Shown: piece after piece, positions 3,901 through 32,199 of the stretch
Layout of the letters: every line of letters begins with the position of its first letter
Position numbering within the stretch: position 1 is the stretch's first letter
Origin: Takakia lepidozioides
Taxonomy: Eukaryota; Plantae; Bryophyta
Assembly (NCBI GenBank): GCA_030704615.1
Contig: CM060732.1
Location: 58,280,001-58,344,000, forward strand
Direction: 5' to 3'
Length of the DNA: 64,000 nt
The notes under the pieces: model-generated
Told to the model about the DNA's origin: nothing
Databases searched by the model: none
The model's input: the letters and a program-made list of their open reading frames with translations, nothing else
Translations under genes and position numbers: made by a program

Positions 3901-5275
3901 TTGGCAGAGCGCACCTCAATAGAGGCCCCCACGTCACTTGTCGGGAGTCCCAACTTTCGCGCCGCCGCCCGGCGTCATGAAGGAGTGCGACGCTCCTGTG
4001 TCCACCAACAACGACACGTTAGTTCCGGATATTATCCCATCCACGAACAATAACTGACTCCCTTTACGCAGGGCGCCAGTTTCCTGATACAACTCACAAG
4101 AATAGTTGCCTACCTTGCAAGTCCTGGCGACTACCGCTTCCACCAAACGACTGATGGTATCTTCCGACAGCTCCGTGGTCGCCCGAGTCATGTTCAATTG
4201 CCGGGGCTTCGTGCACTTCTTGGCCATGTGCCCGGGCTCCCCGCAATTGAAACACACTCCATCAAAGGTTCGCCTTCTGTCCGCCATAAGCCGCTCTACC
4301 CGCTTTTCCTTTCGAAGCACCGGGTGCCGCCTTGACGTGTGAAGGCCCTCCCTTCGATTTCCACGTGCCATTTTCGCCGCGTGGCCTATCCCACTTCTTT
4401 TCCGGTCGGGAGGAGTCACCTTCCCGCCGGGTCTTCTTGTGGTTCAGCTCCGTACGGTCTTGTCTCTCACCCCTAGGGACATCCGAGAAACATTCAGCTC
4501 TCTCAATTGCCTCGTTCAAAGTCTTGGGTGGCTTCTCCTCCAACTTCCGCCTAGCCCATGGGGCCAGTCCCGCCACAAAGTTGAAGACCATTTCTGGTTC
4601 CGCCATGTCCGCGACTTCGAGCAACAGCACATTGAAAGCCTGGACATACCCCCGAATGTCATCTGTTTGCTTCAAATTCCTCATCTTGTCCCGGGCAAGC
4701 CAGGATGCGTTGAGGGGCACAAACTGTCTCTTCATCAATTCCTTGAACCCACTCCAGTTCAAGGTTTCCGGGCTTGGGCCTCGGTCGTGAAGGCGTTTCT
4801 GCCACCATTGTTGAGCATAGCCCCTCAAATAGGTGGGAGCCACTTCCACCCGATCCTCGTCACTCAACTTGGCCGCCCGGAAGTACTGCTCTAGCTCCAG
4901 GAGCCAGGTGTTGAGTGCCTTCCGGTTTCGAACGCCCTCAAAGGTGCCGGGTTCCTTAGGCTTCACCTTAAACTTTGCCTTAGTGGAAGTGGCATTAGCC
5001 GCCTTCAACACGTCTTTCAACGCCCCGCCAAACTGCGCCAACAACCCTTCCCAAAAGGCTGCTGGCATGGGAGGCATCTCTTGGTTTGTCGGAGCTCTCG
5101 AGGATTCCTCGGGCTCCGACTCCTCGGATTCCTCCCGCTCTTGAGCGGCCTCGTTTTCGGAAACATTCATCGCTTCCTCAAACGGCCGCCTCGGTGACAC
5201 GTCGCCCCCATCGGGCTCACCGGGATCATCATCTTTTGGGCCGTTCCGCTTTCGCTTCGGCTTGCCCGACCCCAT
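725..5275 (-). CDS. gag-pol polyprotein with several frameshifts
   Basis: Gag (4262-5275), CCHC knuckle CFNCGEPGHMAKKC, protease LVDTGASHSF (~3990-4020), RT YIDD and RNase H TDASDFAIG (2055-3317), integrase HHCC/DDE and GPF (993-2009). Confidence 0.9.
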
Positions 5276-5316
5276 GATGAGGCCGATCCCAAGGACGATC
5301 GCGTACTGAACTCTAA

Positions 5317-5328
5317 GCTCTGATACCA
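5317..5328 (-). promoter_or_regulatory. Primer-binding site for tRNA-iMet
   Basis: TGGTATCAGAGC on the minus strand, 2 nt from the LTR end. Confidence 0.93.
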
Positions 5329-5330
5329 AA

Positions 5331-6054
5331 TGTCGCGCACCTCACTTCGGTAAACTCCCCTTCAAGTCATAGTTAACCGCTTTGATGCGCGCGCCTGACT
5401 CCCAACCTGGCCGCCGGGCCAACTTGGAGTTTCGGCTACTCACCGGGACATAACGGTCCCCATTTGCTTCCTCTAAAACCCTCCACCTATTTGGGACTAG
5501 GAGAATTCCCTTTGGTAGATGGCAGTCCGGAACAGCTCCCCACTCTTTGGTCGCTTTCCGGCTCGCACGATTACTCACTAGTTTTTGGTCACCAACGGGC
5601 TTGCACCGTTCTCGGGGTTACTACTCCCTATATATACTTCTGTAGCTGTCCGCGGGGGTTTCATAACCAGCCATGCCATTTTATGGCGAACCACCACGAA
5701 AACCCTCGACTCCCGGTGGTGAGTCGCGGTGAGTCTTGGCCCACTCACCGCGGCCCCAATGGACCATGATGAGTCCCAAGACTCCCCACGACTCCCACCT
5801 CGAGGTCTCCACCCCATGGTGAGTCCTATGCCACCCCCACTAAGTCCCACTACGCTACCACCACCCCTTGTGGAGCCACCTCCACCGCAACCCGGTGTGC
5901 GGGGCTCCACCTAGTGAGCGCCTCCGCCTCCTTGAGTGCCTTGGGCACTCAAGGGTGCTTCAGCCCCCCATACCTATCGTCGCCGCTGCCCCCACCACAG
6001 GGGCAGCCCCTCATGTGTCCCGACCCCCTGCCCTCAAGGCAAAGGGCCGCGACA
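5331..6054 (-). repeat. 5' LTR of the chromovirus
   Basis: Termini TGTCGCG...CGCGACA, adjacent to the PBS; TATATATA at ~5629-5636. Confidence 0.88.
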
Positions 6055-8230
6055 GTAACCCTAATAAGGCCCCGGCCGCACCTGGCCGCTAAGCGGCCTG
6101 CTAAGCTAGGTAGTAGCCGTTAACAGCATGGTGACGGCCGCACTTGCCCGTTACAACCCCAGCTAGTTAGCGGGCTCCTAGCAGCTGTTAAAGTTGACGT
6201 AGGGGTTCCTCCAAAATTTAGCACGTCCCCCCCAGGTGGTAAATCGCGGTCACCGACTAAAAATCGGGCACTCGATCTTGCACGCAACAGAGGTATGCAG
6301 CGTCTCCCCTTCCCTGCGATCTCTCCTTTTCTCCCTCCCTGCCTCTCTTCCCTCTCCATGCCTCCCTCTCTTTCATCATCTCTCAATCCATCTCTTTCTA
6401 TTCTTGTTCTTTCTTGTTTTTTGTTTTTGTTTTTGGTTGTTTGTGTGTTCATGGGGTGGGTGATTGCACAGCAGGGAGCGCGGGGCGGGCACGAGCAAGT
6501 CACTGGCAACCGTAGCTCAGTCAATGCAACTCGGTCGCAATTCAGCGAGTGCCATTCACATAGTGCTTTGTTGTACTCTGCACGGCTCGTCGTGCTTCCC
6601 CTCTCTGAAAAGAGAGTTGCCTTTGGCCTTCCTGCCTTGTTCCTCATCCAGAGCCTGCACCACCGATTGCCAGTCGTTGCCAACGCCCATGTGCGTGCTT
6701 TTGGTGGTTGTGGCCACGATAGTCCACTGGTACTAGAAATTGTTACAGATTGAACATTGTGCAGATGGTTTTTGCACAACATGTAAGAAAATCATCATGA
6801 GATTGTCGAAGTGCTTGCATTCAACTAGCAAGAATTTGGTAACAGGGCTGTGCTTGAAGGCTAGCATCACAGAATATAAAGATATCCAATGTGTAGTAGC
6901 ATTGGATATCATGGTCAGTGAAGATGCAAGACAGGTGTGGTTGTGATGGTAATGCCAGACAAACTATACCAAGGAAAGAACAAGGAAAGTGGCTAATTTC
7001 CTCCTGAAACTCTAACAACTCATGGAACAAGAATGCGCAATAAATAAAGCAATCACCAAGAAATCAGGCGTAATTGTGGCTTGAAATGGAGTTATTTGTG
7101 AAGGTTTAGTGTTCATTATTCAAGGGAGAGAGAGAGAGAGTAATGTAGTGCATTGCCCCTTTTCTAGGTAGAAGGGAGCTAGAATACATACAGGTACTGC
7201 AAATTGTAGTAACTTGGGAGATATCTGGTCAACACCCCTCCTTGCTTCCTTGTTGCCCCACTCTTTTCCTGCTTCCTAGCTTTGAATGTGGTGCTAGAAT
7301 ATGTAATATCATGGACAAACACATCTATTAGAAAAATGTCCTCCAAGTTGACCCTGTTTCTGTTTGTCTTGACCCATTGGATAAGGTCTTCATGTGCTTG
7401 TGTGAGAGAGGTAGGAGGAGGATGAAAAGAAGGATGTGTTTATGATTGTTGAAATTGATATGGAACAGCCTTACTGGCCACATACCAGGTGAGCTTGGGA
7501 AAATAAAGGTAGCTTCTACTTCCGAAATATACTGCCTGTGCATCCTCTATTACTGGCTCATTTGAATGATGAATTAGTGTTGATGAGCTCAATTCAATAC
7601 CCCCTTGGTGACTAGATGTGGGTTCTGTGTTATACAGGAGAAAGAGAATGAATCACGTTATGAGGGAGAAAGTAGAGAGAGGCCGTTGTGACCAGGGTAT
7701 ATTTGTTTGAGAATAAGACACCCTATGAGACCCACTACAGCGTGTTCAAAGTGCTTAGTGCCACCCACCTGATTGAATGGCCATTTCTTAATGCCTGTCT
7801 TATGCTTGTGTCATGCAATTGTGATTCAAGACGCTGGTGAGCCTTGATCTGTCTCACAACAACTTCACCAGCTCTATTCCCCACTCTCTAAAGAGAAGCT
7901 CTCTTCTCTTTCATTTTTGTAAGACCTCTCCCTTTTGTGTGTCTCCTTAAATTTGATGCAGGATGCTCAAGTTGACATCCAGCATAAATCTTTTATTTCG
8001 TACTTGCCTGCGTTTTGTACATGTTGCACATTACACTATGTCACAAGTAGGTTTACTCTGGCAACTCCGTCGTCACTAGACAGAGGGCAATGAGGGAGGT
8101 GACCTGCGAGTATTTCTGTTTGGATGATATATATAGGTTGCTTTTTGGTTGCTAAAACTGCAGGGTTACAGTCCCAAGCAGTTGCCCTTCCTCTGCTCAT
8201 GGGTGAAGGTTCAGTCTCCCGGATAGTACC
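6055..8230. repeat. Segmental duplicate (copy 1) of 22118-24360, including the left part of the PIF/Harbinger element (TIR at 6068)
   Basis: Near-identical to 22118-24360 apart from single-base indels and a short deletion near 8205. The homology resumes at 20242-20282, after the inserted retroelement. Confidence 0.93.
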
Positions 8231-8938
8231 TGTCGTGCGCATACATATCGCTACACAACTACATCGCTGTCCAAAACCACACAACACATGTGCACACCAC
8301 ACACTAGTATACCACTAGTCTACCACTAGTCCAGCCACTAGTCCAACCACTAGGCTACAACTAGTCAGTCACTAGGCTGCCACTACGCTGCCCACTATGG
8401 CAGTCACTAGTCCACACAATGATAAAGAAGAAGAATACAAGCACAAGCTCATGCGAGCTCACAAAGCTGAAGCATAAACTCATGCATATATAACCTCATC
8501 ACTCAAATACAAGTCAAGCCAAGTGCACCCCACGCCATGGGGAATCCACACTACGGCGCCATAGCTAGGCGCGGTGAGGCTCAACTCGAGAAAGATGAGC
8601 CTCCCGCGCTTGCCGTGAAGATAACCACTCCAGGGCCTAAATCTGCCTTGACCCCTGGATTGACACTTGGGCCAATCCCAAATGTCAATATGTAAAAGCT
8701 AGCTATTTCCTAGCTAGTTTCACACTAGTGGTAAAATAACTTGACAGCTGTCGTGCGCATACATATCGCTACACAACTACATCGCTGTCCAAAACCACAC
8801 AACACATGTGCACACCACACACTAGTATACCACTAGTCTACCACTAGTCCAGCCACTAGTCCAACCACTAGGCTACAACTAGTCAGTCACTAGGCTGCCA
8901 CTACGCTGCCCACTATGGCAGTCACTAGTCCACACAAT
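8231..8938. repeat. 3' terminal repeat block A-B-gc-A
   Basis: The two 190-bp A copies look identical by eye, with a 327-bp B copy between them. Junction palindrome GACAGCTGTC at 8743-8752; G-run (AGGGGGG on minus) at 8941-8947. Confidence 0.92.
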
Positions 8939-9196
8939 CGCCCCCCTAGCTGGTGCTTAGGTCCCTCTAAGTCCAGGTAGCCACAAGATGTGATAGTGAC
9001 CATAGCCTCACTAAGTCCTCCACCACTATCCCTACTACACTCAAACTCGATAGATCAAGAGGCCGGGTGCAAGAGTTGCCCCATCGTTAGTCGCCGTCTT
9101 GCAACCTGTGAACTTGAGCTTGGGATCTCATGTATTGACTCCTATGAGCTTGGCCTCCCATGTCTTGTTAGCTGCCTCCAGTCATGTCCACTGCCA

Positions 9197-9340
9197 CTAT
9201 CCCAAGCAGTGTGGACACAACCAATCTCCGTCAGGAACCTTCTCAAGAGGTGGTGTCAAGCATCCCATATGCCAACCCCTTGAGCATCGATCACACACCA
9301 GCATGGTGGCTGCCCCTTTGGCAGACCCACAGAGCATGCA
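9197..9340 (-). other. PHD finger (C4HC3)
   Basis: CMLC...MLVCDRCSRGWHMGCLTPPLEKVPDGDWLCPHC matches the canonical PHD consensus. Confidence 0.93.
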
Positions 9341-12331
9341 CCTCAAACCTGCAGGTACCACTGCCAAGTTTGGGTCAACTCTGCCATCGACATTGGGAAG
9401 GTGACATGGCGCACAATTACGCACATGGTCTTTCCAAGTCATGCCATCCCGACCCTCTAAGATCAGGACCCCTGAGGGCAACACCTCTCGAACCCTCAGA
9501 ATAACACGCCCTGCAGTAACATCCAGAGTCGTAGGAGCAGTCTGCTGCAAATAAACATAGTCACCAGGGCTAAACCTCCGAACCCCAGGACGATATCCTC
9601 CACCACGTATAGTGGCATACCTCAACGTATCACGGTGCTGTGCAATGGCAAGGTTCTCAAAAGCCATGGGCATGACTTTCTTGAACAACTCTGCACGCTG
9701 ATCACATGCACGTACCCACACGTCCGGATCGTCAAGGTTAAGGACTTGAGCAGTGTCCCTACGAATGGCTGCAGGCAAATCCGGCTCTCGGCCAAAGAGA
9801 AGGAAATATGGTGAGAAGGAGGCAAGTGATGCTTGTTTGCTGAACCTGTAGCCCATGGCTAACCAAGGAACCTGAAGATCCCAATCTCCTAGGTGTCCCT
9901 TCTGCAAGCCATACTTGCGCAAACCCCTCTTCACCGTCTGAACAACTCTCTCTGCTAAGCCATCGGCCTCAGGATGATCCCGAGAAGTGGTGCGGTGGTC
10001 TATCAAGGCTTTATCACACAAAGCCTGAAACTCCCCCAAGAACTCTCTCCCTTGGTCCGTGAGTACCTCAGCTGGAGCACCAAATCGGCTAAGCACACGA
10101 TCCAAGAATGCATACGCAGCCCCCTCACTAGCCTTGTCAGGCAATGGAACCAACTCAATCCACTTGGAGAAGTGCTCCACCATCACCAACACATATCTGT
10201 GGTGGCGCATAGTCAGTGGCAACGGTCCTGCGAAGTCAAGACTCCACCTGTAGCCCAATCCCATGATAGGTAAAGGATGCAACTGTGGTGTAGGGGCGTT
10301 GAATGAAGCACGCACCCTGTCACACACCATGCACCTAGCCACAAACTGTTGCACCTCTGTATGCATACCACGCCACCAATACTGCCCCTGCAGTAAACTG
10401 TGAGTGCGTCGCACTCCAAAATGCCCCAACTCCTCATGGGCATGCCGCACTAACCGTGCACGCTGTGTGGGGTGAGGCACAATCCTCACCCGACCATCCT
10501 CCCACACTCGAAGTAGGTGTATCCCCTCCCACTTGAACCTCTTGGCTCGTTGCAGGATCCGATCCCTCTCCCTGGCAGTCACAATGGCTGCCGTGTCTCC
10601 CGTGCGGAGGTAGTCCAACACAGCCGAATCCTCATGTATATCTCTGGCACCACCTAGCTCATCACTAGCCTCAGGGTCCTCAGACACTCCGTCTACAGTC
10701 ATCCCTGTTGTAGGTCCAATCTGACCTCCCGATGCCAAGATACACAAAAATGCAGATGCGTGCCATCCCGGCACCATCTCCTCGTCCGTCTCACCATGCC
10801 ACCGAGCTCCAGTGTCATCCTGCTGGCTCATGCATGGATTGCGACTCAATCCATCCGCATCCCGATTGACCAAACCCGGTCGATGCACAACCTGAAAGTC
10901 ATACTCCTGGAGTATAAGTGCCCACCGTGCAAGCTTCCCCGTAAGCTTGTCTGACTCCATCAACCACTTGAGTGGCTGGTGATCCGTGACAAGGGTGAAA
11001 AGATTGCCGTATAGATAGCACCTGAAGTGTGCCACGGCCCACACTGCAGCTAAGCACTCTCCCTCATATGAGCTGTACTTAGCCTCTGCAGCGTTGTTCG
11101 AGCGGCTAGCGTAAGCCACTACGAACTCTCTTCCCTCATCATCCACCTGTGTGAGCACCGCTCCAAGCCCCAGCATGCTCCAATCCGTATGCAGCTGAAA
11201 GGGACGCCCCCTGATAGGTCGTCTCAAGATAGGCGCCGAGGTCAACCTCGCCTTGAGCTCTTGAAAAGCTCGTTCCTGCTCATCTTCCCACTGCCACTCC
11301 TGGTCCACCTTGGTCAGCTTGGTTAGAGCCTTTGCAATGGTACTAAATCCCTTGACAAACCGTCTATAATAGTTTGCCAACCCCATGAAAGCTCGAACTC
11401 GGCTCACATCCGTGGGGCGTGGAATTTGTGCAATGGCCTCTACCTTAGTCTGCTGTACCCCCAATCCTCCAGGATATATCATGTGACCCAGATACTCAAT
11501 CTGGTTGTGGAAAAACTTGCACTTCCCCGGATGCAACTTCAATCCGTGCGCTCTCAAGCGCTCCAATACCACCTGAAGGTGTCTCTCATGCTCCTCCATC
11601 GTAACACTAAAGATGATGATGTCATCTATGTAGCACCGAGCAAAGTCCACCCCTGCTAGAATCCTATCCATGACTCTCTGAAACTCTGCAGGAGCATTCT
11701 TAAGCCCAAATGGTAAGAACCGCCACTGATATAGGCAATCCTTGCCGTGCTCATTGATCCCCCAGAATGCCGTCTTCTGCTTGTCCGCCTCCTTGATTGG
11801 CAACTGGTGATATCCGGATCGTAAATCCAAAGTGCTAAAGGCCTTAGCATGCCCGATGGCATCAAAGATCTCCTCTGGTGTTGGCATGGCATACTTATCG
11901 GACTTGGTCTGACGATTTACAGGCCGGTAATCACCGCACATACGTCTCTCCGTCCAATTGCCATAGACATCCTTCTTGGCTGGCATCACTGTGGCTGAAG
12001 CATACTCTCCACCAGAGAGCTCCACCAAACCTGCCTCCCAGAGATCTTGAGTCCTCATCTGAATCAAAGACCTCTCCATGTCACTGTATCTATAGGGTCT
12101 CCGAAAGATTGGCGTGTCAGTGGCCAACTCAATACGGATCTCTTGACCCTTCAGTGCTCCCAAGTCCTTCAAACTGAAGGCAAAGCAATTCCTGTAAGCC
12201 CTCAGGAACCGCCGTATACGTCGTCTCTCTCCTCCGGTGACAATGGGTCCAATGTCAGGCTCCCAATTGTCCTCCGTAACTACAACCTTAAGTCCAGTGG
12301 GCTTAGAGGTAGAGGACGCGTCCCGTGGTTG
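9197..12331 (-). CDS. pol: reverse transcriptase, RNase H, DDE integrase, PHD finger
   Basis: Uninterrupted frame. RT: LDLRSGYHQ, LPFGLKNAP, YIDD. RNase H: TDWS, EGECLA, TDHQPL, ADGLSR. Integrase: HEELGH..CMVC, LDFAGP, TDQGREF, GLAER. C-terminal C4HC3 PHD. Confidence 0.95.
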   Translation of the reverse strand, partial: QPRDASSTSKPTGLKVVVTEDNWEPDIGPIVTGGERRRIRRFLRAYRNCFAFSLKDLGALKGQEIRIELATDTPIFRRPYRYSDMERSLIQMRTQDLWEAGLVELSGGEYASATVMPAKKDVYGNWTERRMCGDYRPVNRQTKSDKYAMPTPEEIFDAIGHAKAFSTLDLRSGYHQLPIKEADKQKTAFWGINEHGKDCLYQWRFLPFGLKNAPAEFQRVMDRILAGVDFARCYIDDIIIFSVTMEEHERHLQVVLERLRAHGLKLHPGKCKFFHNQIEYLGHMIYPGGLGVQQTKVEAIAQIPRPTDVSRVRAFMGLANYYRRFVKGFSTIAKALTKLTKVDQEWQWEDEQERAFQELKARLTSAPILRRPIRGRPFQLHTDWSMLGLGAVLTQVDDEGREFVVAYASRSNNAAEAKYSSYEGECLAAVWAVAHFRCYLYGNLFTLVTDHQPLKWLMESDKLTGKLARWALILQEYDFQVVHRPGLVNRDADGLSRNPCMSQQDDTGARWHGETDEEMVPGWHASAFLCILASGGQIGPTTGMTVDGVSEDPEASDELGGARDIHEDSAVLDYLRTGDTAAIVTARERDRILQRAKRFKWEGIHLLRVWEDGRVRIVPHPTQRARLVRHAHEELGHFGVRRTHSLLQGQYWWRGMHTEVQQFVARCMVCDRVRASFNAPTPQLHPLPIMGLGYRWSLDFAGPLPLTMRHHRYVLVMVEHFSKWIELVPLPDKASEGAAYAFLDRVLSRFGAPAEVLTDQGREFLGEFQALCDKALIDHRTTSRDHPEADGLAERVVQTVKRGLRKYGLQKGHLGDWDLQVPWLAMGYRFSKQASLASFSPYFLLFGREPDLPAAIRRDTAQVLNLDDPDVWVRACDQRAELFKKVMPMAFENLAIAQHRDTLRYATIRGGGYRPGVRRFSPGDYVYLQQTAPTTLDVTAGRVILRVREVLPSGVLILEGRDGMTWKDHVRNCAPCHLPNVDGRVDPNLAVVPAGLRCMLCGSAKGAATMLVCDRCSRGWHMGCLTPPLEKVPDGDWLCPHCLG

Positions 12332-15300
12332 CTATGCTGCAACCTCTTGAGCAGTACTCCCTACCTGCTCAGTCAATGACAAGGCCTCATCCTGCCCCAT
12401 CATCTCATCCTTGAGGACCTCCTCAACCGAGAAGAATCCCCAACCTCATCCATCACAGCCGCCTTGGCTGCCAACTCCCTCTGAACCTCGAGCACCTCCC
12501 ACGTGTGCCATGGATGCATGCACCCCGTGGTCCTCATATGCTCGCCCCCACTCACTGCCTGTACCGTCTCGGTAGGCAGAGAGACCATTGAGGGAAGTGT
12601 ATTCCGCACTCTGCGTTGCTCAGCTAGAGCCAAGCTGATAATCCAGGTCAAGCAATTGAGATCCATTGCTTGCCCCAACACTTGACGACGTGATGCCTCA
12701 GAAAGAGACGACACCGCCGTGGTACCAGTGGTAAAACCCATTGCCCGCTCACGCTCGTCAGCATTAGGCTCCACTAACTGCTGCAACTGAGCATCCCACA
12801 GGAGGCCAGGTCCACTATCCCGGAAAGCATGCGATCCTGGGAAGCTGAGCAGTGTAGGTAATGCTGCTCGTGGTTGACCCACCTTGTTGACCACTGCCAA
12901 AGGCGAACGGTCATCGTGTCTCACACGTTGAGACTGCCTCCCTGTGTCCAGAATGTTATCCACTGTGAGATGTGCTGGCCGCTGCACCCCATCAAATGCA
13001 CGCTTGAGCAGTGCGGGTGGCATCATGTTAGTCCACCATAGCCGTGGACGATGAGCCCGTGACCCCACTGTAGCTGCATCTAGCAACACTGCTGACCCAA
13101 GCCACGACCGGACTTGATGCACACTGGCCATCACCCTGGCCCGAGAATCGCCCATCAGTGGCACATTCTCCAAGATGTATGCTGGAGATACAGCTTGATG
13201 AAGCTGCAAGTGGCGCAAAACCCGCACCATCTCCCAAAACAGACCCGACCTCGAGTCTCGCAATCCATTGCCATGCCCGGCTGATGAATGCCCTTGGCAG
13301 GGCCAACCTGCCACTACCAGATCAATGGAGCCAACCCGCTCCAAATCCTGCGCCCCCAGCAACGAAATGTCTGCTGGCAAGGCCTGCTGATATCCACGAA
13401 TTGCAGACACCGACAACAACTCAGGGTACCGCTGCACCAACTGAGCAACATGGCGAAGTGAAACGCGTCGTGCAGTCTCATCCCTCTCCACATACAGGTA
13501 ACGCCGAACTCGTACACCTGCCTGTAACACAGCAGCCAATCCGGTGCTGATCCCGCCAAACAAGTCCAGAAGACAAATGCCTTCATCCGGAGACTGCCAC
13601 ACAATAGGTGTGGTGTCCAATGGAGACAATTGAGGTGGTCCTGGTGCAATCCCCACACTCTCCTCCTCTCCTGACGGTACAAAAGCCTCCACCCAGGCTT
13701 GTTGCACCCGTCGATCAGCATCCCGCTGCAAATCCTTGCTCGTGCCCCACAATGGAGTCTGAGCAACCATGGTAGGCAACTCCGCCATACCATACATGTC
13801 ATCCTGCTCTCCCGGAGGTGGTACATCCTCTGAATGAGCATTGCCCTCAAGCAACTCTCTAGGCCAACTCACTGCCGCTGTGAATGCTGCTAGTGTCGGC
13901 ATCTTGCCTCGCTGGGCAACCGCAACTCCTCCTATGAACGTCACAGGGAGCTGCACACGCCGGCCCTCCCCTGACTGCCATGCAGGCCTATAGGAAGCTG
14001 ACTCCTCCCAAAAATCCAGGGTGAAGCCCATGGGGTACAACACTGCCCCACCAACCAGGACATCGTATGAGACTGCGTCTGTCACAATGGCCTTGGCTCG
14101 CATCACTGAGCCATCTGTAGGGTGATCCGGCCGTAGTCTGATAGCCAACTCATGCCGTGTCATGCCCCGAGCCTGCTCCGATCCTCCCAGAGACGTCTGT
14201 ATCTGGAAAGGACAAGGCTCCATATCCGCCTCCGTGAGGCCCAAGCCTGCAATAGCAGCTCTGCCCAGCATCAGTGGCTGAGCTCCCGAGTCCAACAAGA
14301 CTCGCAGTGGCCGGTACCTCTTGCCTGCCGGTCCACTCAAACAGAAAATGCCATCCTGGTTGTCTAACATGACAACTCCAGGTGTCACCATGGCGCGCTC
14401 AATGGCTGGCCTAGCTGGCAGCTCCATCAACCTGGCAGCTGCAGCTTGCCATGGCGCCGCCGTGGCAGTCTTGACCCTCAAATCCGAGGATCCCTCCGGC
14501 ACTACACCTCCCACTATCTCCGCAGAAGATGAAGTAACCTCCCCACTCTCACAGAGTGTAGCTGCCAGCCTGAACACCTCAGCTGGTCTTACCCCCGGCG
14601 TCGCAATCATGGTAGCCGAGAACAATGGAGCCTGGCACACAGATGTGGCCGCTCCTAGCAGCACACTAGCTGCCGTAGCCTTGGCAACACTAGGTAGTGG
14701 TGCTACCCGTGTAGCTCTCCCCAATGGCATAGTGACCTCCGCCTCGGTAACAGTCGGGCGAGAACTAGGTGCCATGGATGGCGTCGACACTGTCTCCGCC
14801 AATGTGAATGACTGAGGAAGCCTAGCCTGACGGCTTGCCTCCCCACGCTGTGGATCCAACTCCACCTCTGCACCTCGTGGCTCAGGAACTCGTGCTGCTC
14901 CTCGAGTCACGGCTGCAGCAGACTCCACCTGCACTAGTGGTAGTGCTGCTCCACACATGAATCCCATGCCTCCCATATCTCCTCCCTCAGGAGCAGGAGG
15001 TGGACCATCCGGCCTTAGAGCCGGTACCACCTGAGCTGTAGCCATGGCAGCGAGCCTCTGCTCTAGCTGCTGAAGCCGGTTGGCCATGCCTTGGTCAACA
15101 CCCTGACCTCCGCGTCCTTGGCCACGTTGAGCTTGCCCTTGGCCTGCACCTCGTGGCTGGCCACCTCGTCCTCTCTGGGCTGCTCCACCTCGCCCCCGGC
15201 CACCATTGTTCCCTTGGAACTGGCCTGGGCGCAACTCAGGATGCAAACTATAACACTGGGCCTCTCCATGCCCGTGCTTGCCACAATGCCCACACTGCAA

Positions 15301-16501
15301 CTGTGCAGGCTGTGCATGTGCCGACCCTTTGCCTCCCTCTGGGCAATCCTTCTTGACATGGGGTCCTCCACATGTCCAGCACACCACATCCGCCCGTTGT
15401 TGGCCAGCAAATGAAGGGAGAGACCCCTGCATTTGAGGTCCTCTCTGCCCTTCCCTGAGCTTCACCTGAGCCCCTTGTTGCCTTGAGCACGTTGAGGTAG
15501 TGGTTGGCTAGGAGCACCACTACCCCGTGGTGTCTCCTTAGCAAATCCCACCATGACCACTCGTTCCTCCACCATGTTGAGCTCTATCCGCTCTGCCAGC
15601 AAAAACACATTTGCTAAGGTGGGTTGGGCCGCTTGTAGGAGAGTTGCATCCCGCACCCTTCTCCTCAGCTCCTTGTCCAATATCCCATACCAGAATTGGA
15701 CTGCCTGAGCTTCCGTAACCCCTTGGGTTACATTTATCAAGCGCCTCATGCGAGTGAAAGCCTCCCTCAAGCTCTCGGTCGGCTTCCGTTGGAACTCTTG
15801 CAAGCTCCGCAACTTCTCTGTCCTCACCCCTTGGTAGTTCCCTCTCAACTCTTCGAAGAACTCCACAACAGGGTTGAAGGCAGGCACGGGTGCTAGTGCT
15901 GGTGCGGTAGTGGCTTGGGTGGACGTCGTAGCTACTGTACCACCAGTCCCACTGCTGCTTGCTGAAGCTGCCGGTGCAGCGGCAGGTGTAGCCACTGCCC
16001 TCGTGGCTCTAGTGCCCCTAGTGATGGAGACATAGTCGGGTGACCAGTACATCCTCCACTCCTCGATCTCAACCTCATGCCCCCGCCTGAACTCATGGTA
16101 ATCATCCATAGGCGCCCCTCAAGGTGCTGAAACAGCCCTTTCCATGCCATGAACGGCGTAAATAGTTGTGGATTGCGCATTTGCTGCAAATCACACCAAC
16201 TATCAAACTCTTGGATAAAATCATCCAACTCAATGGTGCCCACCGCCCCAGAGTACCTTCGTGGCCCCTTGGTAGCTCCATACATCTCCTCCATTGTGTC
16301 CCACAATAATGGCAAAGAAACAACTTGCACCGCCGGTATGAGCCCTCCTGATTCACAATCCGAATCAGAACCTTCCGTGGAAGACACAGGAGGTGAAGGT
16401 GGCCTAAACCGCACACCTCGTCTCGTGTACCCACTAGTATCGCTAGTGCTCGAACCGGCACTGTCCCCAGCAACTAGTGGCACCTCCGTGTTGACACTCA
16501 A
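12332..16501 (-). CDS. gag-protease-C5 DNA methyltransferase ORF; three breaks, each repairable by adding one G to a G-run
   Basis: Gag capsid-like region (15462-16501), knuckles CWTCGGPHVKKDC and CGHCGKHGHGEAQC, protease LLDSGAQ (~14290), DNMT domain. Breaks at ~16116, ~15481 and 12438-12441. Confidence 0.88.
12620..13580 (-). other. C5-cytosine DNA methyltransferase domain (Dcm/DNMT fold)
   Basis: Motifs in canonical order: I LDLFGGISTG, II YVE, III DI, IV GWPCQGHS (catalytic Cys, ~13300), VI YILENV (~13165), VIII AHRPRLWWTN (~13040), IX ERERAMGF, X RRQVLGQAM. Confidence 0.93.
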
Positions 16502-16759
16502 CCGGTCATGAACATGTCCCTAACCCCCTCTCCACAAGGTAACCGGGTAGAGAACCTGTTGCGGCTTATGGTTTGGAATACTAAGTTCCTAACATAGCCT
16601 ACACCTGAACTGCATGATCATGGGAATATCATGAAGATACTCCTCAAACCGCCCTCCACGAGCTTCAAAATTCGGCCTTCCAGACCACATGCCAGTCCTT
16701 AGTCCACCAGTGCCTCCACGAGTCAGCACAGGCCATCCACAGGTCAACACGGGCCACCA

Positions 16760-18380
16760 CAGACCAGCACAGGCCCACACAGCTCACTGGTCACAGCCGT
16801 CACAGTCCCACAGGCCACTGGGCACAGTCTGTCACAGCCCCTCACAGCTCGTCACAGCCTCAAAGGCCTCAGGCACAGCCTGTCACAGCCCCTCACAGCC
16901 CGTCACAGCCCCAAAGGCCTCAGGCGCGGCCTGTCACAGCCCCAAAGGCCATGGGCACGGCCTGTCACAGCCCCTCACAGCCCGTCACAGCCTCAAAGGC
17001 CTCAGGCACGGCCTGTCACAGCCCCTCACAGCCCGTCACAGCCCCAAAGGCCATGGGCACGGCCTGTCACAGCCCCTCACAGCCCGTCACAGCCCCAAAG
17101 GCCATGGGCACGGCCTGTCACAGCCCCTCTCAGCCCGTCACAGCCCCAAAGGCCTCGGGCACGGCCTGTCACAGCCCCTCACAGCCCGTCACAGCCCCAA
17201 AGGCCATGGGCACGGCCTGTCACAGCCCGTCACAGCCCGTCACAGCCCGTCACAGCCGCAAAGGCCTCAGGCACGGCCTGTCACAGCCCCTCACAGCCCA
17301 TCACAGCCCCAAAGGCCATGGGCACAGCCTGTCACAGCCCGTCACAGCCCCACAGGCCTCAGGCACAGCCTGTCACAGCCCCGCACAGCCCGTCACAGCC
17401 CCAAAGGCCACTGGGCACAGCCTGTCACAGCCTGACACAGCCCGTCACAGCCCCACAGGGCACAGGGCACAGCCTGTCACAGCCCATCACAGCCCATCAC
17501 AGCCTCAAAGGCCTCAGGCACGGCCCCTCACAGCCCATCACAGCCCCAAAGGCCATGGGCACAGCCTGTCACAGCCCGTCACAGCCCCAAAAGGCCACTG
17601 GGCACAGCCTGTCACAGCCTGACACAGCCCGTCACAGCCCCACAGGGCACAAGGCACAGCCTGTCACAGCCCATCACAGCCTGTCACAGCTTGCCACAGC
17701 CTGTCACAGCCCGTCACAGCCCGTCACAGCCCGTCACAGCTTGCCACAGCCCCAAAGGCCATGGGCACGGCCTGTCACAGCCCCTCACAGCCCGTCACAG
17801 CCCCAAAGGCCATGGGCACGGCCTGTCACAGCCCGTCACAGACCGTCACAGCCGCAAAGGCCTCAGGCACGGCCTGTCACAGCCCCTCACAGCCCATCAC
17901 AGCCCAAAGGCCATGGGCACAGCCTGTCACAGCCCGTCACAGCCCCACAGGCCTCAGGGCACAGCCTGTCACAGCCCCGCACAGCCCGTCACAGCCCCAA
18001 AGGCCACTGGGCACAGCCTGTCACAGCCTGACACAGCCCGTCACAGCCCCACAGGGCATAGGGCACAGCCTGTCACAGCCCATCACAGCCCATCACAGCC
18101 TCAAAGGCCTCAGGCACGGCCTGTCACAGCCCCTCACAGCCCATCACAGCCCCAAAGGCCATGGGCACAGCCTGTCACAGCCCGTCACAGCCCCAAAAGG
18201 CCACTGGGCACAGCCTGACACAGCCCGTCACAGCCCCACAGGGCACAGGGCACAGCCTGTCACAGCCCATCACAGCCTGTCACAGCTTGCCACAGCCCGT
18301 CACAGCCCGTCACAGCTCGCCACAGCCTGACACAGCCCGTCACAGCCCGTCACAGCTTGCCACAGCCTGTCACAGCCCCA
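16760..18380. repeat. ~1.6-kb minisatellite in the element's 5' leader
   Basis: 10-bp unit (C/T)GTCACAGCC in ~52-55-bp higher-order units punctuated by AAAGGCC-ATGGGCAC/TCAGGCAC. It produces the repetitive ORFs at 16689-18439. Confidence 0.95.
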
Positions 18381-18849
18381 CACATGGCCGCTCTGGCAGT
18401 TTAGCCATTTCTCCAAGGGTTTTAGCCACACCAAGCTAGGGTTTGTGTCTCTTGGACTCTAGGCTTCTTTCCACCGAGCTATGGTGGCTGTGAGGAAATC
18501 AGCAAGGTATCCTTGCTCTTTCGGCTCCCACACACCACCATAGTAGCCCTAAGCCATGAGGTGGTTGCCACAAACCAAGCCTTCTTTCTCACTTAGCCTA
18601 CCCAAACACGCCACTAAACTCAATGGCAAACAACCAAGCCCTGCTGGTTCCCAGCCCTTGTGAGCACTCATTCAAGCACTCTCCTTGGCCATAGCATCTG
18701 TCTTAGAGCTTCTTCCAGCCCCCTACACCTGCTGCTTCAAGAGTTGCGCTCCCTTCAAGCTTGAAGTTGAAACCCCAACTCACATAGGCCCTACAAGTGC
18801 TTTTCTTTCACTCCAAGTGGAAACCAGCCCTAGACCTTCCGTTCTAGCT

Positions 18850-19260
18850 CTCTAAAGCTTGAAAACAAGAGCCTCAATGGGCTGAAGGCATGCTCCACAC
18901 ATGCCCCACTCTCACCATAAAAGAATCAGCTCCTTTGCTTCATTTCTTGCACCCACAAACCTGAAAATACAAGCTTCAGCATGCTGAAAGCATGCTCCAC
19001 ATGCCCTACAGGGAAACCAGCCCCTTCCTTCCTTTCTTGCACTCCCACACCTGAAAGTGCAAGCCTTCACCAGGCTGATAGCATGCTCCACACATGCATT
19101 GCCCTCACGTAAGGGAAGTCAGCCCTTCCCTCTTCCTTGCTTGCCCTCCAAGCTTGAAGATGGAAGCTTCAATGAGCTAAATACATGCTCCACACATGCA
19201 ACCTCTTCACACAAGAGATATCAGCCCCCTATCTTGGCTCCTTGGCTCTTTGATGCTCTC
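18850..19260. repeat. Degenerate ~95-100-bp tandem repeats in the 5' leader
   Basis: CATGCTCCAC(AC)ATGC recurs at ~18889, 18991, 19083 and 19184. Confidence 0.7.
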
Positions 19261-19914
19261 TAAGACAAGACTAAGCACTCCATAGCCTTTGCCAAGCTCC
19301 TGGAACCCTAAGGCTTACATTTCCAGCCACAAGACACTTCTCTTGTGGTGCAAGAGCTCTTCTTCCAAGCTCTGTAACCCTAGGTGCACATTCCATGGCC
19401 TTGCCGCACCTCTTAGCTCCTATTCCAGCCCTGCTCTCGCCATGACAAGAGCCCTCTCAATGCTGAAGCTCGAGATTGAAACCCAATCTCACCATACTCC
19501 ACAAAGTGCACTGATTTGCCCCAAGCCAAATCAGCCCTTTCGCTTGGTCTTGCAATCCTTCACACAATGACAGCTCGCATTCCCAAGTCCAGTTCTCAGC
19601 TTTGCCACCAAAGCCACTATAACCTGCTCTTGACTGGTCCTCTTCCCAATCGTGCTTGCTCATGCATGTACACAATCTGAAACCATCAAGGTGCTCTGGA
19701 ATTACCTACAGTATGGTGCTTTCATCTCTGAAGCTGAAGATCGAATGCCAAGGTTTACCACCTCGTAACCCACATCGCCTCCGCTTCTAACAACCAAGAG
19801 CTCCACGGTGCTCCTTGCATAACAACTTGGTTTCTCTCATTCTCAAGCAAAAACCACAAGTGCTACAACTAACTCGTATCTGGCACTCATAGATACGAGC
19901 TGATCTTTCTCGAG

Positions 19915-20241
19915 TGATAAAGAAGAAGGATACAAGCACAAGCTCATGCGAGCTCACAAAGCTGAAGCATAAACTCATGCATATATAACCTCATCACTCA
20001 AATACAAGTCAAGCCAAGTGCACCCCACGCCATGGGGAATCCACACTACGGCGCCATAGCTAGGCGCGGTGAGGCTCAACTCGAGAAAGATGAGCCTCCC
20101 GCGCTTGCCGTGAAGATAACCACTCCAGGGCCTAAATCTGCCTTGACCCCTGGATTGACACTTGGGCCAATCCCAAATGTCAATATGTAAAAGCTAGCTA
20201 TTTCCTAGCTAGTTTCACACTAGTGGTAAAATAACTTGACA
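19915..20241. repeat. 5' terminal repeat B
   Basis: 327 bp; one mismatch seen against 8420-8746. TATA-like TTATATAT on minus at 19981-19988. Confidence 0.92.
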
Positions 20242-20282
20242 TACCTACCACGATTCCAGCTTTGACGATGTCAACATGGACC

Positions 20283-22030
20283 CTATCCCAGACCTCAATG
20301 TAGCAGTAACCTGGCTCCTCTCTGACACCTCTGACCTTCATCATTTTTCTCACCTTAGCAGTATCGTCCTACCTACCAACTGCAACAGAGATGTTCGATA
20401 GCAACACATGAGTTCCAGCATCTTGTCCATCCCACTCGAGAAAACATTTTGCCGCACGCTCTGCCACCTCCACATTGCCATGACTCCTGCAGGCACCAAG
20501 CAAGGCCCTCCACACATCCAGTTTGATTGGCATTTTATTGATCAAATCCTCTGCCTCGTCCAATCGCCATGCATGGTCAAGAAGGTCCACCATGCAACCT
20601 ATTTAAATGGCGAATGTATGAATCCCATCCAAATGATTTTTGTTTCTTTTCAAACTTATGAGAGCAGATCCTGGAGTCTTTATAGAGATTCTCTGTACCA
20701 TGCAGAGGCCCTTGGCAAGTAGGACCTGATTCTACATACCCTCAAACAGGTCCATGACAAGTACGGGATCAATCGAACTTCATTAAAATGGCAAATGTAT
20801 GAATCCCAAACAGGTCCATGACAAGTATGGGTGCTGCACTGTTGGAGTCAGGCCATGATCTTGACTCAGGGAATAAAAGAAGTGTCTGCCTTCATCTAGT
20901 AGGCCCCCCATGGCTGCATGCAGAGGGAACACATAAAGGTGAAATTGTTTGGCTTCAAGCCTTCATTTTGTATCCTTTCACATAGTTGTAGGACCTCCCT
21001 ATGACAACCATGCTGGGCATATCATGCGGTCATTGCATTCCATGCACATCTCGTTTAGCCATATTTTCAAACACTCCTTTGCATCATTGATGCTCCCACA
21101 CTTGGTGTACATGTCGATGAGGGTAGTATCAAAGATGATATTTGGCACAATTCCAGCTTTCATGATGTCAGCATGGACCTCTTTGTCCTTTTCCAGAGCT
21201 CCCAGGCTGGCACACACATTGCAAACACACACGAATGTTCACTGGTTGGGGTTCACCCCTTCTTGCATCAGTTGATCATAGGTTTCCAAAGCCTCCATCC
21301 CACACCCATGTTGGGCGTATCCTGTGATCATTGCAGCCCACAATACCACTTTTTGTTCAGCCATATTGTCGAACAGCCCCTCTGCATGCTTGATGCTCCC
21401 GCATTTGGCATACGTATCCACGAGGGTAGTGTCCAAGATGACATTTGGCACATTTCCAGCTTTCATGATGTCAGCATGGACCTCTTTGCCCTTTTCTAGG
21501 GCTCCCAGGCTGGCACATGCATTGCAAACGCAAACCAATGTGATCTGGTTGGGCTTCAACCCTTCCCACAATCGTTTGCTTATAGGTCTCCAAAGCCTCC
21601 ATTCCAAAACCATGCTTGGCATATCTGCAATCATTGCACCATATGTGCAGGCATATTGTCGAACACTCCCTTTGCATCCTTGAGGCTCCCACATTTGGCA
21701 TACATGTCGACAATGGACGTATCCAAGACGATATTTGGCACAATTCCAGCTTTCATGATGTCAACATAGACCTCTTTGCCCTTTTCCAGAGCTCCCAGGC
21801 TGGCACACACATTGTAAATGCAGACGAATGTGACTTGGTTGGGCTTCACCCCATCCTGCATCATTTGCTCACATATCTCCAAAGCCTCCATACCGAACCC
21901 TTGCTGGGCATACCCTGCTATCATTGCACCCCATGAAACCACATTTCGTTCAGCCATATTGTTGAGCACTCCCTTTGCATCCTCGATGCTCCCGCATTTG
22001 GCCTACATGTCATCTAGGGTAGTATCCAAG
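20283..22030 (-). pseudogene. PLS-class PPR-E pseudogene
   Basis: Repeated DMYAKCGS..A..VFDNM...VVSW.AMIAGYAQHG motifs and E-domain MVDLL...VWRALLGACRSHGNVE...VLLSNI; frameshifts and a ~230-bp insertion at 20600-20830. Confidence 0.88.
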
Positions 22031-22130
22031 GTCTCAAGGGTTTCCCTACAATATCACTGTTTCATATACCTTGCCATCAGTATATTCCTCGTATCTTGTT
22101 TCTTGCGCCCCGTTAAAGTAACCCTAATAA

Positions 22131-25100
22131 GGCCCCGGCCGCACCTGGCCGCTAAGCGGCCTGCTAAGCTAGGTAGTAGCCGTTAACAGCATGGTGACGG
22201 CCGCACTTGCCCGTTACAACCCCAGCTAGTTAGCGGGCTCCTAGCAGCTGTTAAAGTTGACGTAGGGGTTCCTCCAAAATTTAGCACGTCCTCCCCCCAG
22301 GTGGTAAATCGCGGTCACCGACTAAAAATTGGGCAGTCGATCTTGCACGCAACAGAGGTATGCAACGTCTCCCCTTCCCTGCGATCTCTCCTTTTCTCCC
22401 TCCCTGCCTCTCTTCCCTCTCCATGCCTCCCTCTCTTTCATCATCTCTCAATCCATCTCTTTCTATTCTTGTTCTTTCTTGTTTTTTGTTTTTGTTTTTG
22501 GTTGTTTGTGTGTTCATGGGGTGGGTGATTGCACAGCAGGGAGCGCGGGGCGGGCACGAGCAAGTCACTGGCAACCGTAGCTCAGTCAATGCAACTCGGT
22601 CGCAATTCAGCGAGTGCCATTCACATAGTGCTTTGTTGTACTCTGCCACGGCTCGTCGTGCTTCCCCTCTCTGAAAAGAGAGTTGCCTTTGGCCTTCCTG
22701 CCTTGTTCCTCATCCAGAGCCTGCACCACCGATTGCCAGTCGTTGCCAACGCCCATGTGCGTGCTTTTGGTGGTTGTGGCCATGATATGTCCACTTGGTA
22801 CTAGAAAATTGTTACAGATTGAACATTGTGCAGATGGTTTTTGCACAACATGTAAGAAAATCATCATGAGATTGTCGAAGTGCTTGCATTCAACTAGCAA
22901 GAATTTGGTAACAGGGCTGTGCTTGAAGGCTAGCATCACAGAATATAAAGATATCCAATGTGTAGTAGCATTGGATATCATGGTCAGTGAAGATGCAAGA
23001 CAGGTGTGGCTGTGATGGTAATGCCAGACAAACTATACCAAGGAAAGAACAAGGAAAGTGGCTAATTTCCTCCTGAAACTCTAACAACTCATGGAACAAG
23101 AATGCGCAATAAATAAAGCAATCACCAAGAAATCAGGCGTAATTGTGGCTTGAAATGGAGTTATTTGTGAAGGTTTAGTGTTCATTATTCAAGGGAGAGA
23201 GAGAGAGAGAGTAATGTAGTGCATTGCCCTTTTCTAGGTAGAAGGGAGCTAGAATACATACAGGTACTGCAAATTGTAGTAACTTGGGAGATATCTGGTC
23301 AACACCCCTCCTTGCTTCCTTGTTGCCCCACTCTTTTCCTGCTTCCTAGCTTTGAATGTGGTGCTAGAATATGTAATATCATGGACAAACACATCTATTA
23401 GAAAAATGTCCTCCAAGTTGACCCTGTTTCTGTTTGTCTTGACCCATTGGGATAAGGTCTTCATGTGCTTGTGTGAGAGAGGTAGGAGGAGGATGAAAAG
23501 AAGGATGTGTTTATGATTGTTGAAATTGATATGGAACAGCCTTACTGGCCACATACCAGGTGAGCTTGGGAAAATAAAGGTAGCTTCTACTTCCGAAATA
23601 TACTGCCTGTGCATCCTCTATTACTGGCTCATTTGAATGATGAATTAGTGTTGATGAGCTCAATTCAATACCCCCTTGGTGACTAGATGTGGGTTCTGTG
23701 TTATACAGGAGAAAGAGAATGAATCACGTTATGAGGAGAAAGTAGAGAGAGGCCGTTGTGACCAGGGGTATATTTGTTTGAGAATAAGACACCCTATGAG
23801 ACCACTACAGCGTGTTCAAAGTGCTTAGTGCCACCCACCTGATTGAATGGCCATTTCTTAATGCCTGTCTTATGCTTGTGTCATGCAATTGTGATTCAAG
23901 ACGCTGGTGAGCCTTGATCTGTCTCACAACAACTTCACCAGCTCTATTCCCCACTCTCTAAAGAGAAGCTCTCTTCTCTTTCATTTTTGTAAGACCTCTC
24001 CCTTTTGTGTGTCTCCTTAAATTTGATGCAGGATGCTCAAGTTGACATCCAGCATAAATCTTTTATTTCGTACTTGCCTGCGTTTTGTACATGTTGCACA
24101 TTACACTATGTCACAAGTAGGTTTACTCTGGCAACTCCGTCGTCACTAGACAGAGGGCAATGAGGGAGGTGACCTGCGAGTATTTCTGTTTGGATGATAT
24201 ATATAGGTTGCTTTTGGTTGCTAAAACTGCAGGGTTTACAGTCCCAAGCAGTTGCCCTTCCTCTGCTCATGGTGAATTTGAGTCTGGCAGGTGGGATGAG
24301 GTTCACGCGGTGATATCACCATTTTGCCCACCCTCATTATCAACAACAGGGCAGTCTCCCGGATAGTACCTACCACGATTCCAGCTTTGACGATGTCAAC
24401 ATGGACCTCTTTGCCGTTTTCTAGAACTGCCAGGCTGGCACAAGCACTGAGAATGCAACTGAGGGTGATCTCATTGGGCGTCACCCCTTCACAAATCATT
24501 TGCTCATAGGTCTCCAAAGCCTCACTACAACACCGTGTATCCTACTATCATTGAAATCCATGAGACAACATTTCGTTCAGTCATATGCCATCAGCCGGGT
24601 GGTCTGATCTGTGAAATGTTGGTGTTGACACGCAGCTGGCCTTCCACCTCCGCATGCTCAATGACCGCCACCTCTTGGAGTAGGAATTGTTCAGTCATTA
24701 CCATCATTCCCAAGCCAGACCTTTTTGTACATGATTCTGAATAGAGTCTATCCCTGCAACCTCTTGCCTCATCAATCACTTTTCCTAGGTTCTTTTGCCA
24801 TGCGAGAATGATGTTGTGTGCCCATCATACAGTCATTAAGGTTAAACTTTGCTTTACATGCCTTGTGACTAGAGACCAGCTTGTACCCCCTTTTCGATGG
24901 AGCAAGAAAGGGGCTTGAAGGGGAAGGCAGACTGGGGAGGAGAAGAACATATTTGGAATAAAACGAATATTCATAACGTCCACGGAAAGCTCAAAGAGCT
25001 TATGAGAAAGAGAAAGCATTAAACAAGAAAAAAATGAGCTCCTGAAGTGACCTGCAGGTACAGTCGAGGAGTTCCAAATTGACGAGCTCCCTCTTCCCTC

Positions 25101-25301: not shown

Positions 25302-25560
25302 TAACTTAGTTACTTAGGGCCCTTGCGTGCTTATTTTTTCCAGGCTCTTTTTAATGCAATTCCAGGGCCTCGAGTCTGTCCCCCTTTTATTATTTTGGTT
25401 TAAGAGCGAAAAAAGAAGGAATTGTGTAAGTAAGTTAGGGCACAGGGCAAGGCGTAGCGGGGGTGAGGGGGCAAAGCGAGGAAGGGCGAGAGAGGGGGTC
25501 TTTTGCACATCGCCATCGCTGCGAGGGAGCGGCCGCCACAGAGCAGGGACCAGCAGCGCC

Positions 25561-31950: not shown

Positions 31951-32199
31951 AGAAGGGGAATGCAGCGATGGGAAGGAGCGGTGGCCGTGCCGATTTGTCT
32001 GAGCGATGAAGCTGATCCAAATCCATGGAGCCAACTATCTCAAAAATCCACAGTCCTTAGTGTTTAATGAACCTTGTCTCCGGATGCGGCCCCTGGTCTT
32101 GCGCATAATGCCAAACGGTAATGGCAGTCAGAAAGTGGGGGCCGTCCGGATGATGACGCTGAATGGGAGAAGCCGGCACTGTGCCGTCACATTACCCCC

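Follow-up and report, generated by a model that had tools for sequence, protein, structure and literature searches.

Among the described retrotransposons that encode a cytosine DNA methyltransferase (DNMT), the closest to the one reported here is KnitGypsy-Dnmt3 of Klebsormidium nitens (PMC5890265). Two others from the same work, SymbioDIRS-Dnmt3 and SymbioLINE-Dnmt, are also retrotransposon-encoded cytosine methyltransferases but represent other classes, hosts and captures. EpiLTRs (bioRxiv 10.64898/2026.05.21.726589) likewise pair a methyltransferase with a chromatin reader, but their DNMTs are sister to DNMT4 and their reader is a chromodomain; that preprint mentions "streptophytes (Gypsy-DNMT3)" and, in the passages available, leaves land plants unnamed. 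The element described here is a DNMT-bearing Gypsy retrotransposon lying on the minus strand, from 20241 down to 8231, of a 64,000-nucleotide stretch of Takakia lepidozioides (contig CM060732.1, positions 58,280,001 to 58,344,000), hereafter the window. We lean towards reading it as a young copy of an old green-plant Gypsy lineage that encodes Gag, protease (PR) and DNMT ahead of a likely leaky stop, would pack the DNMT in excess and likely methylates its own cDNA.

The element shares with KnitGypsy-Dnmt3 its Gypsy domains, a DNMT3-related domain, DIRS-like repeats, the catalytic residues and a Ka/Ks below 0.2 (PMC5890265), and the legend of Fig. 4c of that paper gives the same split-repeat pattern for KnitGypsy-Dnmt3. 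The K. nitens protein P0060, ordered PR, DNMT, reverse transcriptase (RT), RNase H (RH) and integrase (INT), is 45% identical to the window over 260 DNMT residues, and its RT falls in the same clade. Two differences stand out: KnitGypsy-Dnmt3 has few copies in K. nitens, whereas the land-plant family is very abundant and recently inserting, and its DNMT lies in the Pol open reading frame (ORF), whereas here a stop with a readthrough context precedes RT (PMC5890265). Since the DNMT is outside the open frame of RT, we class the element as a variant of KnitGypsy-Dnmt3.

The methyltransferase maps as follows.
12628..13578, minus strand: DNMT3-fold C5 cytosine methyltransferase with motifs I, II, IV (PCQ), VI (ENV), VIII, IX and X (Pfam, PDB, Foldseek)

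The initial annotation had recognised this domain by five motifs, LDLFGGIS, GWPCQ, ENV, HRPRLWWTN and LGQAM. All five were found, and the C5 methyltransferase profile of Pfam (DNA_methylase, PF00145) matches with E 2e-12. Motifs I-X stand in unpermuted order. The best PDB sequence match is DNMT3A (E 1.5e-11), followed by DNMT3B, DRM and, weakly, HhaI (4e-4); an AlphaFold model from a 15-row alignment (pLDDT 87) also has DNMT3A as its best Foldseek match (E 1e-18, TM 0.70/0.81). Judged by sequence and model, the domain is a DNMT3-like C5 methyltransferase. One comparison weighs against this: over motifs IV-VI a phage methyltransferase scores 53 bits and DNMT3A 47.5, among candidates pre-selected by motif and outside any tree with host DNMT3. 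Seventeen viral loci give partial matches (24-48%), and phage and streptophyte DNA_methylase clusters score equally (0.96) in the ESM Atlas, which does not discriminate between them. On the strength of motifs VIII-X and the fold we favour DNMT3 over a bacterial or phage origin.

The DNMT search returned 70 proteins of about its own length, together with 19 that are longer. Named matches come from Calypogeia fissa (75%), Marchantia polymorpha (up to 77%), Sphagnum, Klebsormidium nitens, Closterium and Cymbomonas, the nearest named relatives being liverworts; searching with RT-RH extends the range to Riccia and, by look-up, to Coleochaete. The 120 rows listed name no vascular plant, but names are attached to only about a quarter of the proteins. 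There are 264 cluster representatives with E < 1e-30. As for the host, contigs from all four sequencing runs span 30 of the 30 bins of 8940-16600 (two of the runs are one sample, possibly the source of the window), 85,903 contigs being aligned from one run, and in a run filed under a second species label the DNMT differs at 4 of 963 bases. This is an abundant family of the host and not a single capture. One protein, P0364, is a pol of the family filed at NCBI as an uncultured Synechococcales cyanobacterium; it is likely plant or algal DNA in the bin.

By its substitution ratios the DNMT domain is under purifying selection: dN/dS is 0.09-0.16 in five unsaturated or moderately saturated pairs (of 13 listed) and 0.09-0.12 among stop-free copies. 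For the window against its relatives it is 0.06 once, near saturation, and undefined through saturation in three pairs. A point to the contrary is that 13 of the 25 top-listed in-host DNMT variants change a residue, the other 12 being synonymous. Four pairs of stop-ridden moss-type copies reach 0.35-0.56. These values, together with frame breaks in the window copy, are what could be said for a methyltransferase gene taken up just once, from the host or a bacterium, that is now decaying as a passenger. That account is refuted by the same DNMT position in liverwort, moss and algal relatives and by the number of cluster representatives, and RT is as relaxed as DNMT (0.57) in the sole decayed pair allowing the comparison, while the stop-free copies keep their low ratios; we regard it as extremely improbable. 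The initial annotation had itself raised a one-off capture, a dN/dS near 1 and an absent C5 methyltransferase profile as possible objections. The family-wide domain, the ratios of 0.09-0.16 and the PF00145 match answer them.

We placed the 187 aligned full-length DNMT domains (186 of 231 proteins, plus the window) in a FastTree tree with midpoint root. An unnamed clade of 117 domains (P0041, P0049, P0054, P0077-P0088 and others) keeps the catalytic Cys in 117 of 117, the preceding Pro often being Glu, and all 91 of its domains with readable context lie between RNase H and integrase. The other 70 lie before RT or have no context. The RT tree (FastTree) was built with one in-window outgroup and without named reference lineages; it groups 161 of 173 rows, K. 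nitens DNMT elements included, with a support of 0.998, and nests the after-RH group (57 rows) among before-RT groups. The simplest reading of these trees would be one capture, then a move of the DNMT. Among named RT relatives outside plants, animal Gypsy elements come closest. P0337, a protease-RT-RH protein with a Dam adenine methylase domain (PF05869), branches at the base of the DNMT-bearing RT clade. The initial annotation held a DNMT to be no standard feature of land-plant Ty3/Gypsy lineages; the land-plant insertion is real, but it is not a separate oddity and descends from the lineage already known from Klebsormidium (PMC5890265).

The coding region, read on the minus strand, comprises the following features.
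16791..18378, no strand: tandem array of about 152 copies of a 10-bp unit, with a 51-bp higher order, in the 5' non-coding region (repeat analysis)
15462..16519, minus strand: gag, fragmented here by one-base breaks near 16113 and 15470 (Retrotrans_gag E 0.0011, below cut-off)
15268..15381, minus strand: two CCHC-like zinc knuckles (read from the translation, without a Pfam match)
14020..14313, minus strand: aspartyl protease, LLDSG at 14298 (Pfam Asp_protease_2 E 0.052, weak, below cut-off)
12420..12450, minus strand: one-base frame break in the spacer after DNMT (contig comparison)
12326..12334, minus strand: TAG CAA CCA (stop plus CARYYA), putative readthrough signal between ORF1 and ORF2 (RT-frame reading; relatives)
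9197..12331, minus strand: ORF2, with RT (~11947-11477), RNase H (~11290-10901), integrase (~10471-9960) and PHD (1044 stop-free codons; Pfam)
9206..9340, minus strand: PHD finger at the integrase C-terminus (Pfam PHD E 1.8e-10; PDB sequence search)

The Gypsy order PR-RT-RH-INT is present, with rve and H2C2 integrase matches, and the protease region is 40% identical to that of K. nitens P0060. No tyrosine recombinase match was obtained in the four element ORFs scanned, nor a chromodomain match in the element, which has a PHD. The DNMT had been described as in frame after the protease and before RT. The first half of the statement is right, as a frame of 1035 codons (12400-15507, minus strand) holds two zinc-knuckle-like motifs, the protease and the DNMT; the second is not, because an in-frame TAG at 12334-12332, followed by CAA CCA, stands directly before ORF2 and splits the DNMT from RT. 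A peptide seen by eye upstream of the first gag Met, GYTR.G.RF, is common to the window (16430-16400, minus strand) and L001 (~500-530), which may point to initiation at an upstream non-AUG codon or to a spliced leader.

To compare this boundary we used 34 metagenome loci, of which six are without the stop region, leaving 28. TAG or TAA followed by CAR-YYN occupies the DNMT/RT boundary in 26 of them, L006 and L009 being without. The exact CARYYA is present in five loci and in the window, as three hexamers (CAACCA, CAGTTA and CAATCA) that code for QP, QL and QS respectively. In the stop-free loci L015 and L019 a frame of 1047 codons begins directly after the boundary stop. TAG CAA CCA is intact in a host contig with 6% divergence, all 25 differences of which lie elsewhere, and most proteins from the window's clade and its sister clade (31 of 36) end soon after the DNMT. 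UAG-CARYYA is the essential readthrough context of tobacco mosaic virus and gives 6-32% readthrough in plant reporters (PMC2754532). The stop and hexamer of the element are the same, with the predicted readthrough site lying between PR-DNMT and RT. The conservation of the stop context thus makes readthrough likely, with DNMT at the level of Gag, and we consider it very probable from these comparisons that RT-RNase H-integrase-PHD is made by readthrough of the UAG-CARYYA stop. Reinitiation is disfavoured, since the first Met of ORF2 lies inside the conserved stretch that precedes RT. With the reporter values, DNMT output would exceed that of RT and integrase several- to fifteen-fold.

Two features of the sample reduce the weight of this comparison: a single decayed family accounts for 21 of the 26 stop contexts, its CAA CCC (14 TAG, 7 TAA) departing from the consensus at one base and preceding an ATG, and several of these 21 loci are the same copy assembled twice, so that there are only about five independent lineages. 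In algal relatives the DNMT runs through to RT in a single continuous frame, and the leaky stop is therefore likely a later feature of the window's clade. Five land-plant gene models join the DNMT to RT or RNase H, with measurable spacings of 119-141 codons in three and 76 in one, against 199 in the window; these models likely splice over the stop.

The window copy itself is not entire. Its pol had been called intact: ORF2 (RT-RH-integrase-PHD) is open, but ORF1 has three one-base frame breaks as assembled, upstream of the TAG, near 16113, 15470 and 12426, and this broken ORF1 counts against our main reading. At every break there is a one-base difference between the window and the contigs of all four runs. 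The breaks are copy-specific mutations or assembly errors, and the latter is plausible because each break is at a short single-base run and the duplicated flank has 15 gaps against 7 mismatches.

The ends of the element were delimited by repeat and border comparisons; TSD and PPT denote the target-site duplication and the polypurine tract.
20242..20245, no strand: TSD TACC, right copy (border comparison)
19915..20241, minus strand: A1, 327 bp, element 5' end, starts TG (repeat comparison)
20079..20091, minus strand: 13-nt leader, exact complement of the primer site, predicted RNA 5' end (2 of 20000 shuffles reach 13 nt)
19903..19915, minus strand: primer-binding site at the end of A1, complement of the leader in A, without a TGG tRNA-type start
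8938..8947, minus strand: PPT AGGGGGGCGA (first 9 bases also in L009, L011, L013 and L022)
8749..8937, minus strand: B1, 189 bp, directly after the PPT (repeat comparison)
8743..8752, no strand: 10-bp palindrome GACAGCTGTC at the B1/A2 junction (CA, 2-base spacer, TG), predicted integrase cut site
8420..8746, minus strand: A2, 327 bp, inner copy of the 5' repeat (1 mismatch to A1)
8231..8419, minus strand: B2, 189 bp, element 3' end, ends in CA (0 mismatches to B1)
8227..8230, no strand: TSD TACC, left copy (the empty paralogous site has one TACC fewer)

The 4-bp TSD claimed in the initial annotation is real. TACC is found at both borders, and a paralogous copy of the flank at ~24345-24407, 98.9% identical and element-free, has one TACC fewer. 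The claim of a recent insertion also stands: the repeat copies differ by 1 mismatch in 516 bases (A 1, B 0), which points to a young insertion, without a calibrated rate. The near-identical terminal repeats are near-identical indeed, but they are not a pair of long terminal repeats (LTRs). The layout is A1, ORFs, PPT, B1, gc, A2, B2, i.e. A-ORFs-B-A-B split direct repeats. These split repeats, the junction palindrome and the self-priming signal had escaped the initial annotation. Thus the canonical Ty3/Gypsy traits are present (TG...CA ends, 4-bp TSD, PPT) except for two identical LTRs, one per end, the ends being the different repeats A and B. L022 has the same layout, with palindrome and 4-bp TSD, but an unrelated repeat sequence. 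The junction GACAGCTGTC is common to the window, L022 and L019, and reads CA-gt-TG in L015. Full split repeats were obtained in one of the 18 self-compared loci of at least 6 kb (L022), most others being decayed or without one end. L014 shows at 13150-13400 an A-like repeat, about 15 bases, then the start of B, and is possibly an internally deleted derivative of the family.

The leader lies 177 bases upstream of the primer site, within A. Leader/primer-site pairs recur with other sequences in L022 (17 nt, 0 of 20,000 shuffles) and L015 (16 nt), and predicted folds close them. L022 and L015 have TATA-like hexamers about 25 bases upstream of the leader, whereas the window shows no clear one. Self-priming through this complement is very probably the way synthesis starts. 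Tf1/Sushi and Tcn1 likewise use an LTR-derived complement and not a tRNA match as primer site (PMC6317226, PMC2864245); these are, however, chromoviruses with ordinary LTRs, whereas the present element has a PHD and no chromodomain match.

How the split layout arises may be proposed as follows. The RNA would start at the leader and prime itself, and reverse transcription, begun at the self-primer and the PPT, would yield a linear DNA with an LTR B-gc-A at each end. The ends of this DNA would join, producing the A2/B2 junction as it is seen; integrase would then cut after CA on both strands of the CA-gc-TG palindrome, and insertion would follow with a 4-bp duplication. In the window the A2/B2 boundary matches, at every base, a fusion of the primer-site end with the sequence that starts after the PPT; in L022 it agrees to within one base. 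We give an even chance to a two-LTR circle opened at the CA-gc-TG of one LTR as the source of the integrated layout. The foamy-virus integrase, also of DDE type, opens a palindromic two-LTR junction, but cutting there at the LTR-LTR junction yields a normal provirus, whereas the cut predicted here, inside the LTR, would yield a permuted element (PMC1180852). One observation weighs against the circle: no more than two full-length elements were seen, and both share one opening junction, whereas a symmetric circle could open at the other too.

That shared permutation would suit a template switch on RNA or cDNA, as in DIRS and PAT elements, giving a linear end-ready DNA without a closed two-LTR circle, and the A1-B1-A2-B2 repeats are those that define PAT and Ngaro elements (PMC4157794). 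The element differs from PAT, TOC and Ngaro, which have the same A1-ORFs-B1-A2-B2 order, in its DDE integrase, TG...CA ends, PPT, 4-bp TSD and absence of a tyrosine recombinase match (PMC4157794). Against a template switch, a standard PPT and primer site are at LTR-type places, the exact A2/B2 join is seen in two families, and conservation extends to the junction palindrome but not to the repeats. Such a switch seems to us possible but less than probable, and it concerns the ends only.

As to the role of the DNMT, ORF1 would be a Gag-PR-DNMT product and RT-RH-integrase-PHD its readthrough extension, DNMT being packed in excess over RT. The abundant DNMT, freed by the protease, would then methylate the cDNA. 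Activity of the enzyme is likely from its residues: across the 187 domains, at ~35-75% identity, the catalytic Cys is kept in 182, the Glu of ENV in 187 and two Arg in 185 and 184 respectively. Its release by the protease is probable, and the cDNA is, by a small degree, the substrate we would put first. For DIRS elements methylation of the cDNA has been proposed as the purpose by de Mendoza et al. (PMC5890265), and SymbioDIRS-Dnmt3 methylates CG in yeast (PMC5890265).

Other data weaken the case for methylation of the element by its own enzyme. The K. nitens enzyme gave no methylation in yeast, a result its authors call inconclusive (PMC5890265). CpG odds ratios are 0.16 and 0.31 for the element, 0.57 and 0.57 for the neighbouring DNMT-free Gypsy, and 0.09 and 0.11 for host PPR genes; since these genes match the depletion of the element, self-methylation is not singled out. 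A CA excess at codon junctions, tried as a measure of strand bias, was rejected as confounded by first-position changes. The inactivity in yeast, the non-diagnostic CpG depletion and an amount at Gag level, beyond what a catalyst needs, would also fit a DNMT that is retained for binding and shielding DNA or RNA, or as a structural component of the particle, and that methylates DNA little or not at all. The near-complete retention of the catalytic Cys, Glu and Arg over such diverged domains argues against it, and we hold it unlikely.

The PHD finger raises the other possibility, that chromatin is the target of the DNMT. Within an uncleaved readthrough product the integrase PHD would then direct it to the new insertion, to the flanks of the insertion or to sites in trans. 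Its nearest solved relatives in the PDB sequence search are CHD4, KDM5B/KDM5A, PHF12 and ATXR5, together with the PHF21A and AIRE fingers. The CHD4, KDM5, PHF21A and AIRE fingers are readers of unmethylated H3K4, and DNMT3A is guided by its ADD domain. Besides this resemblance, the second clade with DNMT directly before integrase (91 of the 187 domains) and the one continuous frame of algal relatives are in favour of chromatin as target. In the window's clade, however, the stop separates most DNMT molecules from the PHD with its putative histone binding, and the possibility is a rather improbable one. The initial annotation saw a methylation writer and a histone reader in one element. Both domains are encoded, but they would be joined only in the minor readthrough product, because the DNMT ends ORF1 before the stop and the PHD lies beyond it. 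Under the cDNA reading, the PHD would likely tether integrase to chromatin. Taken jointly, an ancient and still-inserting Gypsy clade that integrates by DDE chemistry from a palindrome-opened two-LTR circle, and whose leaky stop loads active DNMT3 at Gag level for methylation of the cDNA before integration, is a tentative proposition and less likely than not.

The element is inserted at the end of one gene of a PPR cluster on the minus strand (20250-22030, 44450-46530 and 53335-53955); one of these genes has E and E+ motifs and several are fragmented. E and E+ motifs are a mark of land-plant editing factors and so point to a land plant as host; with liverworts as the nearest named relatives, a bryophyte is likely. 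Two local duplications are about 99% identical, 6054-8217 / 22117-24285 and 51040-52485 / 56838-58283; the former, with its 15 gaps and 7 mismatches, reaches the empty insertion site. A second, unrelated Gypsy (996-5341, minus strand) has a Ty3 capsid, CCHC, RT, RH, integrase and SH3 in several frames, without a DNMT match; it is the control in the CpG comparison. On the plus strand, 25318-26118 is an open frame with a full ribosomal protein S10 domain, intron-free there and possibly a retrocopy, and 47860-48309 a fragment of a RibD C-terminal domain (E 2e-5). The window further contains tandem repeats of ~85 bp (32180-33310) and ~580 bp (42050-44250) and a gap of 500 N (30094-30593).

In print, with Repbase and most subscription papers outside the search, this kind of element was found only in PMC5890265 and in one line of bioRxiv 10.64898/2026.05.21.726589. 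The searchable text of PMC5890265, figures excluded, makes no mention of a PHD (0 occurrences), self-priming, a junction palindrome or a TSD, and the text of its supplement gives no match to Marchantia, Sphagnum, PHD, readthrough or split direct. The available parts of PMC11982613, 10.1101/363937 and PMC11244446 hold nothing on a DNMT-bearing Gypsy family. Within this scope, print sources gave no record of a land-plant range, of a readthrough stop, of a self-priming pair or of circle-permuted ends.

The family has practical consequences for annotation. Search tools that rely on paired LTRs likely miss or mis-trim it, and its domains likely inflate DNMT counts in bryophytes; several Marchantia gene models labelled methyltransferase or hypothetical are these elements. 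Algae and dinoflagellates have been the described sources of DNMT-carrying retrotransposons. With a young and abundant land-plant family that has relatives in the genetic model Marchantia, the purpose of such elements becomes testable, and the leaky stop predicts both the amount and the destination of the DNMT. The ends, finally, would offer a natural case where a DDE integrase may use a circle as its normal substrate, a long-disputed retroviral route.

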